Sequence record: PV730300.1
DNA: 64,000 bases
From: a phage
Reading direction: 5' to 3' (one strand)
Shown: positions 49,601 to 58,012 of the stretch, in pieces
Layout: each line of letters opens with the position of its first letter
Numbering within the stretch: the stretch's first letter is position 1
Program-made: the position numbers and the translations under genes
The notes under the pieces: model-generated
What the model saw: only the letters and a program-made list of their open reading frames with translations
Told to the model about the DNA's origin: nothing
Databases searched by the model: none

Positions 49601-50005
49601 TTATTGAAGTTTAAGTGAACCACGAAGACGTTTCTCTTGCTGATCACGGATATATTGTGGAACCTCGTGAATTGAATCATTACCGTGCCTATTTTCAACA
49701 ACTAAAGAGATAACTTGATAACCAAACTCTTCAGCAAGAGCTAGGTAAGGTTTAAGTTCTTTCTCTGTGGTTGAAGTATTAGAAACAATAATCTTGTTAA
49801 GATTAGATGCCATAGCATCACGAACAATACCCTGACACCATGCGTGTGCTTTACCTACATTTTCTGGCTTCCAATCGTAAACACCACTTTCTGTGTAATG
49901 ATATTGATCTGCCTCACAGATAGGCCAATAACCTTCAGAAATAATTTCTGCTACTGTAGATTTACCAGCACCTGAAACGCCACGTAAAATGATAAGTTGT
50001 TTCAT
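49601..50005 (-). CDS. P-loop kinase (polynucleotide 5'-kinase-like)
   Basis: ILRGVSGAGKST Walker A at N-terminus, 134 aa; directly downstream of RNA ligase. Confidence 0.6.
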   Translation of the reverse strand: MKQLIILRGVSGAGKSTVAEIISEGYWPICEADQYHYTESGVYDWKPENVGKAHAWCQGIVRDAMASNLNKIIVSNTSTTEKELKPYLALAEEFGYQVISLVVENRHGNDSIHEVPQYIRDQQEKRLRGSLKLQ

Positions 50006-50938
50006 TTATCCTCCAAAAAAGTTTTCGATTTTTTCACGTCGCTCTTGCTGATTTAAAGCAGCCCATTGAGTCTTCGTAAAATTATTTCGAATCCATTCTA
50101 ACAAAGCGTAATATTCTTCGTCAACCATTTGCTTGGCATTTTTTGGATTATCCCAAATCAGATCCCACTTTTTATCTCCACCACGCATAAGAAACTTCTT
50201 AGTAAGATAGTGTGGTGATTTAATTTTTAAAAGTAAGTTGAACGGATAGTTTGTTTCACGAACTACAAACCCTTCGTGTTTACAATGTTTAGACATTTCA
50301 ACCACATCTGAAAATTTAATCATCGGATAAACTTCAGGACGTTTAAATTTTGTAATAGATGCAATCCCATCAAGCACACCTTCAGGTAACATAAAACTTG
50401 TCCCATCAGGATTTTGAATTCTGGCACCAATTAAGTATGCACCTGGTTCTTCTTCGACAATATGCGGATCAGAAGGATCACAGATTTCAAACAGGAAAGT
50501 TGCTTTTGCACTCTCTGCCCATTTGATGAAATGTTCTATGTCATCGCACTCTGAAACAATATGATTCTTTGCAATACTTGCAAAATCTGATTCAAGGCTT
50601 CCTGTTGTCGATACAATAAGTTGACCTTTATATACACCTACAGAGGCCATAAAACCATTTACTTTACGAACCACATCTACAAGTTCATCCGCTGGTAGAT
50701 CTGTGCCATTCTCAAAACGATTAAAAATCTTAGTGAAAGGCCAAATAACAACATTGTCATCAGCATCAACAACGATTCCGCGACATTCTAGAAGACGAGA
50801 ATCAATGCTCCATAAGTTATCCCAGAAAACTTTGTTCTTATACTTAAGAACAGATAGACCAGAATACTCTCCTTCTTTATATGTTTTCTTATGAACTAAA
50901 CCTTTTTCAACCAAATCGTCGCAATTAAATTTAGTCAC
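50006..50938 (-). CDS. rnlA: RNA ligase, T4 Rnl1-type
   Basis: LLECRGIVVD and KVNGFMASV (motif I) align to T4 Rnl1 LECRGIMF / KEDGSLVST; GTG start after AGGAGAG. Confidence 0.75.
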   Translation of the reverse strand: MTKFNCDDLVEKGLVHKKTYKEGEYSGLSVLKYKNKVFWDNLWSIDSRLLECRGIVVDADDNVVIWPFTKIFNRFENGTDLPADELVDVVRKVNGFMASVGVYKGQLIVSTTGSLESDFASIAKNHIVSECDDIEHFIKWAESAKATFLFEICDPSDPHIVEEEPGAYLIGARIQNPDGTSFMLPEGVLDGIASITKFKRPEVYPMIKFSDVVEMSKHCKHEGFVVRETNYPFNLLLKIKSPHYLTKKFLMRGGDKKWDLIWDNPKNAKQMVDEEYYALLEWIRNNFTKTQWAALNQQERREKIENFFGG

Positions 50939-50939
50939 A

Positions 50940-51491
50940 TTACTCTCCTTTGATTATTTTGTGATGGTCTACAGTCACGATATCTCGTTTACTCATCATA
51001 GAAATTATCTCATCAAAATGCAAGATTTTTCCGTGTGCATCCCAACCCACATCTAACATTTTACCATAAGCTTCATCAGGGAAAGATCCGTGGGAATGCC
51101 CGTGTAGCATGATTGATCCACGACCTTGTTTATTCCAGGAGGCTATAGGGTAATGGCTTAAGACGAAGAACAGCTTCTGATATTTCACTTCGTCATAATA
51201 CACCACTTCTCCATACTCTGCAAGCACTTCTCGGTGTTTGCTGTAGTCATGGTTCCCAACACAGTAGGTGATATCTCCTTGGAGACGGGAAGCAATTTTA
51301 CGGGTATCTTCTTCAGTTCCGAAACAGAAGTCGCCCAAATGCCACATCTTAACACCAGGAGTAGTAGCACATTTGTTCCATGCTTCGATCAAGGCTTCTG
51401 TCATGTGGTCCATATCTTCCCACGGACGATATTCAGGAGCAAACTCTCGAATACGTTTATGCATAAAATGCAAATCGCTTGTAATAAACAT
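50940..51491 (-). CDS. calcineurin-like metallophosphoesterase (candidate RNA 2',3'-cyclic/3'-phosphatase)
   Basis: SDLHF, LGDF, VGNHD, HGHSHG metallophosphatase motifs. Confidence 0.7.
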   Translation of the reverse strand: MFITSDLHFMHKRIREFAPEYRPWEDMDHMTEALIEAWNKCATTPGVKMWHLGDFCFGTEEDTRKIASRLQGDITYCVGNHDYSKHREVLAEYGEVVYYDEVKYQKLFFVLSHYPIASWNKQGRGSIMLHGHSHGSFPDEAYGKMLDVGWDAHGKILHFDEIISMMSKRDIVTVDHHKIIKGE

Positions 51492-55730: not shown

Positions 55731-55759
55731 TTGACAAACGTATCCTTCATATGTTAGGA
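55731..55759 (+). promoter_or_regulatory. promoter (ACTATTGACAA box) upstream of tRNA cluster
   Basis: TTGACA-N17-TTAGGA; box ACTATTGACAA repeated at 56318 and 57288. Confidence 0.45.
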
Positions 55760-56317: not shown

Positions 56318-56346
56318 TTGACAACTAACATTATTTTATGTTAGAT
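56318..56346 (+). promoter_or_regulatory. promoter (ACTATTGACAA box) internal to tRNA cluster
   Basis: TTGACA-N17-TTAGAT immediately upstream of tRNA-Ser. Confidence 0.45.
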
Positions 56347-56355
56347 TATAAGTAT

Positions 56356-56446
56356 GGAAGGGCAAATCGACGTGGCGACGAAAACGGTCTTGAAAACCGC
56401 CGAGCTTGAAAGAGCCTTGGGAGTTCGACTCTCCCTCCTTCCGCCA
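56356..56446 (+). tRNA. tRNA-Ser (anticodon TGA), type II
   Basis: CGGTCTTGAAAACCG anticodon arm matches E. coli tRNA-Ser(UGA); long variable arm; G73; CCA. Confidence 0.6.
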
Positions 56447-56667: not shown

Positions 56668-56755
56668 GGTGAGTTAATTCCGTAGGGGTAGCGGGGCAGA
56701 CTGTAAATCTGTTATCATTGCGATTCGGGTGGTTCGACTCCATCACTCACCACCA
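56668..56755 (+). tRNA. tRNA-Tyr (anticodon GTA), type II
   Basis: GCAGACTGTAAATCTG anticodon arm as in E. coli tRNA-Tyr; A73; CCA; D-arm atypical. Confidence 0.55.
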
Positions 56756-56761
56756 AATTAA

Positions 56762-56847
56762 GATGAGTTGGCTGAATGGTTTAAGCGGCGGACTGTTAAT
56801 CCGTGTTCGAAAGAACGATATAGGTTCAAATCCTATACTCATCGCCA
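56762..56847 (+). tRNA. type-II tRNA (long variable arm, G73) with GTT anticodon (Asn codons); identity uncertain
   Basis: Perfect 7-bp acceptor, loop CTGTTAA, variable arm GTTC-GAAA-GAAC, T-arm ATAGG-TTCAAAT-CCTAT, CCA. Confidence 0.55.
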
Positions 56848-56852
56848 GAATT

Positions 56853-56932
56853 ATGGACTTGTAGAGTTAAGGTAAACCCCCAGTCGCCAAGAGGCTTCTG
56901 AAATTGCAGGTATCGAATCCTGCCGAGTCCCA
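56853..56932 (+). ncRNA. tRNA-like element, isotype unresolved (possible degenerate tRNA)
   Basis: Acceptor-like GGACTTG/CGAGTCC and T-arm-like GCAGG-TATCGAAT-CCTGC but no canonical anticodon arm found. Confidence 0.25.
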
Positions 56933-56937
56933 GCTTT

Positions 56938-57012
56938 GCTCCTATAGTATAATGGCTATTACAACGGTTTTGTAATCCGTGGATCTCTGTTCGATTCAGA
57001 GTGGGAGCACCA
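56938..57012 (+). tRNA. tRNA-Thr (anticodon TGT)
   Basis: Acceptor GCTCCTA/TGGGAGC, loop TTTGTAA, T-arm CTCTG-TTCGATT-CAGAG, CCA. Confidence 0.6.
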
Positions 57013-57895: not shown

Positions 57896-58012
57896 AATAT
57901 CGCTTGCCAGCGGTATCTTTGAAGACCTTGCCTGGTTCCTTCTAAGATGGAGGGGTGCGACTCCTTAACGCACAATTATAATAAAGCATTTCAACTTAAC
58001 AGTATTTATTAG

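Follow-up and report, generated by a model that had tools for sequence, protein, structure and literature searches.

The 64,000-nt stretch of phage DNA analyzed here (sequence record PV730300.1; this whole stretch is the window below) comes from a Phapecoctavirus-like Escherichia coli phage and carries, at positions 56762-56847 on the + strand, a tRNA gene with the anticodon GUU and a long variable arm. In bacteria, long variable arms are by textbook account limited to the tRNAs for Ser, Leu, Tyr and Sec. Coliphages such as nieznany and tuntematon share 99.5% identity with the region, and these Phapecoctavirus records annotate the counterpart of the window tRNA as a plain tRNA-Asn. An initial annotation of the window had left two readings side by side, a tRNA that is serylated while decoding Asn codons or a structurally unusual tRNA-Asn. 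Our evidence favors the unusual tRNA-Asn, which most likely accepts Asn and is not a Ser-inserting recoder; serylation is not favored in view of A2-U71, a Tyr-like arm and an invariant G73 and GUU. The tRNA and its parts are as follows, with the supporting methods in parentheses (MFE, minimum free energy fold).

56762-56847, + strand: long-arm (type II) tRNA-Asn(GUU), 86 nt including the encoded CCA (ARAGORN, Rfam, MFE, covariation)
56762-56768 with 56837-56843, + strand: acceptor stem GAUGAGU/ACUCAUC, seven perfect pairs (sequence)
56771-56786, + strand: D arm, a 3-bp stem GCU/AGC (C11-G24) with G13-A22 unpaired and a loop with G18 and G19
56788-56804, + strand: anticodon arm GCGGA-CUGUUAA-UCCGU, with the anticodon GUU at 56795-56797
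56805-56819, + strand: variable arm, 15 nt, in which GUUC (56805-56808) pairs with GAAC (56813-56816) (MFE, covariation, RNAalifold)
56809-56812 and 56817-56819, + strand: GAAA tetraloop of the variable arm and the three unpaired bases GAU that follow its stem
56820-56836, + strand: T arm AUAGG-UUCAAAU-CCUAU (Rfam, covariation)
56844-56847, + strand: discriminator G73 (56844) and encoded CCA (sequence)

Read 5' to 3' on the + strand, the gene is GATGAGT-TG-GCTGAATGGTTTAAGC-G-GCGGA-CTGTTAA-TCCGT-GTTCGAAAGAACGAT-ATAGG-TTCAAAT-CCTAT-ACTCATC-G-CCA (56762-56847). We ran ARAGORN, a check that the initial annotation had proposed, and it called tRNA-Asn(gtt), 86 nt, at these coordinates. The Rfam tRNA model (RF00005) matched the full length at 62.0 bits (threshold 29, E = 2.3e-12); this score lies above the gathering threshold and makes the sequence a member of RF00005. 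The covariance model also upheld the placement of the anticodon at GUU and treated 12 additional nt as an insertion in the variable region. The MFE fold is a cloverleaf with a 4-bp variable stem. The acceptor stem begins with G1-C72, A2-U71 and U3-A70, and the 7-nt anticodon loop CUGUUAA has U33, A37 and G34 U35 U36 all in place. The parts that the initial annotation had described, namely the 7-bp acceptor stem, the CTGTTAA loop, GTTC-GAAA-GAAC in a 15-nt variable region, the T arm, G73 and CCA, were all found where it had put them. An intron or mobile insertion in the variable region was rejected, because the hairpin covaries and spans no more than 10-12 nt and the tRNA is otherwise of standard mature length.

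To determine how widely this tRNA occurs, we performed blastn with the 86-nt query and found that at least 80% of the tRNA was matched in 226 GenBank phage records. The same program, run with the whole tRNA as query against 5,426 complete E. coli genomes, returned no full-length relative; the sole match was a chance 35 nt in yobD, and we therefore rejected the possibility that the tRNA is a copy of a host gene. A long-arm tRNA-Asn(GUU) with G73 was present in at least four cultured phage lineages:

Stephanstirmvirinae: the window phage and Justusliebigvirus alia (L001)
Vequintavirinae: Seunavirus SalP219 and Mydovirus VLCpiM5b (L240, L241)
Demerecviridae: Tequintavirus SP15, an Epseptimavirus and a Novosibvirus (L002, L003, L006)
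Straboviridae: Jiaodavirus phiKp_22 (L008)

We then scanned with a pattern in which the Asn anticodon arm was fixed and a long gap was demanded before the T arm; G73 was not demanded. This long-arm pattern was found in 88 uncultured viral contigs, compared with more than 120 viral loci for the corresponding short-loop tRNA-Asn pattern. Among cells (185,579 species, one genome each), only 21 stretches carried the long-arm pattern; ARAGORN called about half of these as long-arm tRNA-Asn, and most of those lay in tRNA clusters. The tRNA belongs to a long-arm tRNA-Asn family, coherent and spread horizontally, that resides in large virulent phages and in tRNA arrays. We found no description of a long-arm (class II) tRNA-Asn in the literature; subscription journals lay outside this search, and an earlier description is possible. 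The gene itself is familiar to annotation pipelines as a plain tRNA-Asn in hundreds of genomes, and its shape passes without comment in searchable papers.

Several cellular loci deserve a separate record. In the chromosomes of Micromonospora and Verrucosispora, more than 30 tRNA genes lie together in arrays (L099 797-6206, L100 1531-5503, L103 2815-7960), and among them is a long-arm tRNA-Asn of 90 nt that has U1-A72 and a variable stem of 6 bp. Two contigs of Saprospiraceae metagenome-assembled genomes (L098 4397-4857, L105 5498-5796) hold two to three tandem matches to the long-arm Asn pattern; these adjoin an ordinary tRNA-Asn, receive no tRNA call from ARAGORN and are 128 nt apart in L105. 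An Azoarcus tRNA-Asn (L116 114-200) has a 16-nt variable region that resembles a tandem duplication of ATCCGTAGGTC, and duplication of this kind may be one way in which long variable regions arise by mutation.

To assess the fold by comparison, we aligned 20 divergent homologs and, as a control, slid the pairing partners. Standard pairs filled 99% of cells in the true alignment and 33-44% with slid partners, and all four pairs of the variable stem showed changes on both sides; the tRNA is on these grounds real and not a chance fold. All seven acceptor pairs covaried among the homologs as well. Between the window and phage alia, the variable stem changes from GUUC/GAAC to GAAC/GUUC, a full compensatory swap, and RNAalifold recovered the variable-arm helix independently, without the helix being supplied. 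Over 65 distinct family members, the variable region measures 11-19 nt (mode 15) and has a stem of 3-4 bp, a loop usually of 4 nt, for which GNRA and UUCG are common, and 3-4 unpaired bases 3' of the stem. In the one other copy compared at close range, that of the Phapecoctavirus variant Ro121c4YLVW, there were only two differences from the window tRNA, both at unpaired positions. Comparative sequence analysis indicates that the long arm of the phage tRNA-Asn is under selection.

We next considered which amino acid this tRNA would carry. In E. coli, the Asn identity set consists of the GUU anticodon and G73 and can be transplanted into another tRNA body (PMC9976931). The window tRNA has the complete set (G34, U35, U36 and G73). 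A comparison with the host tRNA-Asn had been suggested by the initial annotation, and it showed full identity to E. coli asnT over bases 25-43 (56786-56804), with both CNG motifs (C28, C40) kept. Charging with Asn is most likely because the identity set is complete and the anticodon arm is copied exactly from the host tRNA-Asn. All 65 distinct homologs have G73, though the search pattern did not demand it. Positions 1-2, by comparison, read UC in 23 of them, UG in 17, GG in 13 and GA in 6, and U1-A72, as in E. coli tRNA-Asn, is found in most metagenomic members.

The elements of Ser identity were weighed against the same sequences. Seryl-tRNA synthetase (SerRS) is indifferent to the anticodon and reads arm size and tertiary shape, G73 and the acceptor stem, and G1-C72 together with G2-C71 is absolutely conserved in E. 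coli tRNA-Ser (PMC9976931). The window tRNA has G1-C72, with A-U at 2-71, and GG occupies positions 1-2 in 13/65 long-arm tRNA-Asn compared with 61/68 phage tRNA-Ser of the same loci. It also has G73 and C11-G24, both found in tRNA-Ser; G73 is common to Asn identity and so does not discriminate. Phage tRNA-Ser arms are mostly 16-23 nt long, with 5-7 bp and 0-1 unpaired 3' bases, and the arm of the window tRNA (15 nt, 4 bp, three unpaired 3' bases) is not of this type. At least three unpaired bases lie 3' of the arm in 58/65 long-arm tRNA-Asn, compared with 6/68 phage tRNA-Ser (Fisher p = 1e-22) and 23/28 phage tRNA-Tyr (p = 0.5). The arm geometry is Tyr-like rather than Ser-like, since these counts match those of phage tRNA-Tyr and not of tRNA-Ser. 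Beyond arm geometry, the window tRNA does not qualify as a tRNA-Tyr: its discriminator and anticodon are G73 and GUU in place of A73 and GUA, and G73 is listed among the antideterminants against the synthetases for Tyr and Leu, TyrRS and LeuRS (PMC9976931). Its 15-nt variable region with a 4-bp hairpin likewise separates it from type I tRNA-Asn, in which the variable loop is short (4-5 nt). Nor does it resemble a mis-acylating class II tRNA, as its discriminator and anticodon fit Asn and the family does not conserve the acceptor elements of Ser.

Long arms are also present on other tRNAs in the same phage loci, where tRNA-Thr(UGU) has G1-C2 and A73, tRNA-Trp has G73 and tRNA-Cys has U73. A73 for Thr, G73 for Trp and U73 for Cys are the discriminators expected by their own synthetases from the E. 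coli identity sets. As these tRNAs keep their own discriminators, the arm was acquired independently of Ser identity. The long-arm isotypes beyond Asn were recorded as Thr(UGU) with A73, Trp(CCA) with G73 and Cys(GCA) with U73, together with Glu and Ala forms, each having the discriminator expected for its own amino acid (L016 4406-4492; L057 8998-9084, T5-like; L035 4387-4473; L013 9032-9203; L039 206-290). Phage tRNA-Ile(UAU) of 92-95 nt was found with a variable region of 21-25 nt that contains a recurring CCAGAT(T/A)AG-type motif (L020 9355-9446, L034 7444-7538, L084 12394-12488, and loci L125, L131, L184, L193, L199 and L202). In an independent sample of viral loci, 6/22 tRNA-Ile genes had the long-variable-region form, which looks like a second recurrent type of long-arm phage tRNA.

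Comparison with known tRNAs places these features in context. The short-loop asnT/U/V/W genes of E. coli have the same GUU and G73 as the window tRNA and, in asnT, the same bases 25-43, but they have U1-A72/C2-G71 and a 5-nt variable region where the window tRNA has G1-C72/A2-U71 and 15 nt with a hairpin; the 3-bp D stem is a further difference. Kuttervirus Maynard encodes a 75-nt tRNA-Asn with a short loop that nonetheless shares the 15-nt D arm with a 3-bp stem of the long-arm forms. Its T stem is identical to that of Justusliebigvirus alia, and the variable regions of the two differ only by a 10-nt hairpin. The tRNA-Asn(GUU) of T5, which takes part in counter-defense against PARIS (PMC12409363), likewise has G73, lies in a large tRNA cluster and is followed by a tRNA-like RNA ("rna3"). 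It differs in its short variable loop, its length of 78 nt and its heavily mutated, mismatched anticodon stem, whereas the window tRNA has the exact host stem and the arm. Other Demerecviridae (SP15, the Epseptimavirus and the Novosibvirus) have the long-arm form, unlike T5.

Bacterial tRNA-Tyr shares the arm geometry (3-4 bp, a 4-nt loop and about three unpaired 3' bases) as well as G34 and U35; it has A73 and A36 where the window tRNA has G73 and U36, the two anticodons differ at position 36 only, and there is no clear sequence ancestry between them. With bacterial tRNA-Ser, the window tRNA has in common a long arm with a GNRA loop, G73, G1-C72 and C11-G24, and its D arm is as long as that of the phage's own tRNA-Ser(GCU); it differs in A2-U71, the geometry of the arm junction and the Asn anticodon arm. 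Nematode nev-tRNAs (PMC3333845, PMC4300185) and bacterial allo-tRNAs (PMC5389517) also combine a class II shape with an anticodon whose amino acid is normally served by class I-shaped tRNAs. The former are charged with Leu in vitro (PMC3333845, PMC4300185) and allo-tRNA amber suppressors insert Ser or Ala (PMC5389517). Both carry the identity of the class II synthetase, whereas the identity elements of the window tRNA match the amino acid of its own anticodon; its acceptor/T branch is the standard 7/5, in contrast to 8/4 or 9/3 in allo-tRNAs (PMC5389517). We also searched 853 non-Asn tRNAs encoded in the same loci for the nearest neighbors of the D arm, T arm and acceptor, and no isotype emerged as a consistent donor for the body of the long-arm tRNA-Asn. 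The best non-Asn match to the D arm of the window tRNA was a T5-like tRNA-Cys, and across the family the nearest isotypes were scattered among Cys, Ser, Lys, Val and Tyr. The attempt to prove that the tRNA descends from a tRNA-Ser or a tRNA-Tyr was given up, as no donor isotype was consistent.

The gene lies in a tRNA cluster with the following features:

49601-51491, - strand: kinase/ligase/phosphoesterase trio, three adjacent genes about 5 kb upstream of the tRNA cluster (Pfam domains)
56318-56347, + strand: sigma-70-like promoter TTGACA-18 nt-TAGATT, with TG before the second hexamer (consensus match only)
56356-56446, + strand: tRNA-Ser(UGA)-like gene with an odd D arm (only Rfam match tRNA-Sec, 37 bits, below threshold)
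56668-56755, + strand: tRNA-Tyr(GUA), directly upstream of tRNA-Asn (Rfam tRNA, 39 bits; annotated as tRNA-Tyr in related phages)
56854-56931, + strand: tRNA-like RNA, directly 3' of tRNA-Asn (acceptor-like stem, T-arm-like hairpin, fold z-score -3.2)
56938-57012, + strand: tRNA-Thr(UGU), the next true tRNA downstream of tRNA-Asn (ARAGORN, Rfam)

Two tRNA-Ser genes do lie upstream, as the initial annotation had noted, but they are 225-400 nt away rather than adjacent, and the immediate neighbors of tRNA-Asn are tRNA-Tyr and the tRNA-like RNA; nor are both Ser genes ordinary, since the gene at 56356-56446 is atypical. ARAGORN made no call for that gene. In alia, the corresponding place holds a tRNA-Ser(UGA) both by ARAGORN and by the record, and the odd D arm resembles that of T5 tRNA-Ser(GGA). 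The tRNA-Tyr(GUA) at 56668-56755 has a weak Rfam score, no ARAGORN call in the window and an MFE fold that is not a cloverleaf, and one related phage record lists its counterpart as a pseudo-tRNA. The cluster is framed by sigma-70-like promoters at 55731, 56318 and 57288 and a terminator-like site at 58011, all of them consensus matches only. The promoter at 56318 is the likely start of a predicted transcription unit Ser-Ser-Tyr-Asn-(tRNA-like RNA)-Thr.

The tRNA-like RNA at 56854-56931 has no normal anticodon arm. It can be aligned with T5 "rna3", which is listed as a putative tRNA-like stable RNA and likewise lies 3' of the T5 tRNA-Asn, and with the equivalent spacer of Justusliebigvirus alia. 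Because T5 and alia hold a matching RNA after their tRNA-Asn, the Asn gene and the tRNA-like RNA appear to travel as a single module between unrelated phage families. In the trio at 49601-51491, we found a P-loop kinase (AAA_33, E = 2.7e-10), an Rnl1-family RNA ligase (RNA_lig_T4_1, E = 9e-15) and a metallophosphoesterase (Metallophos_2, 24.3 bits, just under Pfam's 27-bit cut-off); one public record names these genes "ATPase," "hypothetical protein" and "phosphoesterase." They likely form a cassette for heal-and-seal repair of tRNA, as T4 Pnkp/Rnl1 do.

Host tRNA-Asn(GUU) is a known target of defense nucleases. PARIS AriB cuts it between positions 40 and 41 (PMC12409363), and P2 OLD cleaves the same host tRNA in its paired CNG motifs, 3' of C28 and C40 (PMC12445682). 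T5 tRNA-Lys, tRNA-Thr and tRNA-Asn expressed together rescue from AriB, and phage Bas34 (SelmaRatti), which has a tRNA-Asn gene, is reported to depend on the T5 copy nonetheless (PMC12409363). In the escapes described so far, phage tRNAs carry point changes that alter the stem or the loop of the anticodon arm (eLife 2023, PMC12409363, PMC12445682). Tyr, Asn and Thr(UGU) tRNAs are all known targets of defense tRNases (PMC12409363, PMC12445682, PMC11555353), and the window cluster contains this trio. The anticodon stem of its tRNA-Thr(UGU) (56938-57012) is shortened by a U31-U39 mismatch, and a shortened anticodon stem is one of two features reported for the resistance of phage tRNA-Thr to P2 OLD (PMC12445682). 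The window tRNA-Asn itself has no substitutions relative to the host at or around the cleavage sites, the mark by which nuclease evasion is recognized. Some homologs combine the arm with U28-A42 (SP15 group) or C31-G39 (SalP219).

We think it probable that the window tRNA is a functional phage tRNA for AAC and AAU codons, most likely charged with Asn by the host asparaginyl-tRNA synthetase (AsnRS), to which a hairpin has been added. The hairpin (4 bp, a GNRA tetraloop and three unpaired bases) in the variable region gives it the Tyr-like long-arm shape. Expressed from the upstream promoter at 56318, the tRNA would supply Asn-tRNA during infection, adding to or replacing the host tRNA-Asn pool. 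Such a supply would fit an AT-rich phage genome with frequent Asn codons (the window has 38% G+C, and its long open reading frames use 47.9 Asn codons per 1000, or about 4.8% of codons) and a host tRNA-Asn that is a target of defense tRNases. In the window tRNA, the helix of the arm emerges directly at position 44, beside the cut strand. The arm may change the hinge beside positions 40-43 of the anticodon stem in such a way that tRNases or toxins bind poorly and the determinants for AsnRS are untouched. We tentatively suggest that it shields the tRNA from tRNases that cut nearby (PARIS AriB at 40/41, P2 OLD after C28 and C40) or from other toxins; plain stabilization of the tRNA core is the main alternative role. 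A counter-defense role is plausible, on inference, because the cluster has the trio of tRNase targets, a putative repair cassette lies upstream and the arm stands beside the cut strand. It is possible, if on balance doubtful, that long arms are a recurrent, selected add-on to phage tRNAs beyond Ser, Leu and Tyr, on Asn above all and also on Thr(UGU), Trp, Cys, Glu and Ile(UAU), which would work as a shield or tag against tRNases and toxins. This would be a second tRNA-based route of counter-defense, distinct from the described point mutations in the anticodon stem and loop.

Several observations weigh against these proposals. The window tRNA retains the exact AriB and OLD cleavage sequences, and tRNAs for Trp, Cys, Glu and Ile(UAU), isotypes not known as nuclease targets, bear long arms too, so that shielding from AriB and OLD cannot be the whole story. 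The conservation of the anticodon arm in the metagenomic set is partly built in, since the search pattern fixed that arm. Some serylation is conceivable given G73, G1-C72, C11-G24 and an arm sized like that of the phage's own tRNA-Ser(GCU), which has 15 nt with 4 bp and a GAAA loop; the layout of that arm is 1 unpaired base, 4 bp, a 4-nt loop and 2 unpaired bases, compared with 0/4/4/3 in the window tRNA. Class II synthetases approach the tRNA from the side of the variable loop, as in AspRS-tRNA (aspartyl-tRNA synthetase) complexes, and AsnRS is a class IIb enzyme; a long arm could hinder it. Finally, the long-arm tRNA-Asn of SP15 served only as a negative control in one study (PMC11555353).

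A tRNA of dual identity, in which E. coli SerRS serylates some or all of the pool and AAC/AAU are partly read as Ser, is in our judgment unlikely. SerRS works independently of the anticodon and uses arm size, tertiary shape, G73 and the acceptor stem (PMC9976931), and to the shared G73, G1-C72 and C11-G24 the window tRNA adds U3-A70; the arm of the phage tRNA-Ser(GCU) is equally short, and the T5-like and Jiaodavirus homologs even have G1-C72/G2-C71. Against this, the window tRNA has A2-U71 in place of the G2-C71 that is absolutely conserved in E. coli tRNA-Ser (PMC9976931), and in the family positions 1-2 vary freely (UC, UG, GG, GA) whereas G73 and GUU never do. The arm junction is Tyr-like (at least three unpaired 3' bases in 58/65, versus 6/68 for Ser), and the long-arm tRNAs for Thr (A73) and Cys (U73) show the arm gained independently of Ser identity. 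AsnRS would also compete for a tRNA that bears its full identity set, and with Asn at about 4.8% of phage codons appreciable Ser insertion would harm every phage protein.

We give slightly less credence to a decoy that does not take part in translation, a mimic of host tRNA-Asn that would soak up or inhibit defense tRNases or tRNA-binding toxins. The anticodon arm matches that of the host target exactly, CNG motifs and AriB site included, the tRNA-like RNA lies directly 3' of the gene, and the authors of the PARIS study consider overexpressed viral tRNAs possible competitive inhibitors of AriB (PMC12409363). However, G73, CCA, a covarying acceptor stem, the G18G19/T-loop elbow and a 7-nt anticodon loop are features for charging and the ribosome, not for bait, and in the P2 OLD study rescue by phage tRNA-Thr apparently did not work by competitive inhibition (PMC12445682). 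Least probable of the three is a neutral or decaying variant, a harmless insertion such as a slipped duplication with no selected role. Variable loops do tolerate insertions, the long variable region of the Azoarcus tRNA-Asn (L116) apparently came from a tandem duplication, and engineered hairpin-tagged tRNAs are reported to be still active in translation (PMC7590224). Yet the hairpin is kept across four cultured phage lineages and many uncultured ones and is far commoner in viral than in cellular sequence; all four stem pairs show compensatory changes, the loops are strongly biased to GNRA and UUCG, and the 3-4 unpaired 3' bases are conserved. Pseudogene and decoy status were both considered and are retained solely as rivals of low probability.

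A conserved, covarying and widely spread phage tRNA-Asn with a long arm departs from the textbook limit of such arms to Ser, Leu, Tyr and Sec. Should it carry Asn, AsnRS must tolerate a long arm, which would be useful for tRNA engineering, and tRNA class would be more plastic in viruses than in cells. If the tRNA were serylated after all, it would represent natural, virus-driven ambiguous decoding. If the arm protects against tRNA-cutting immunity, it would constitute a new mechanism of counter-defense.

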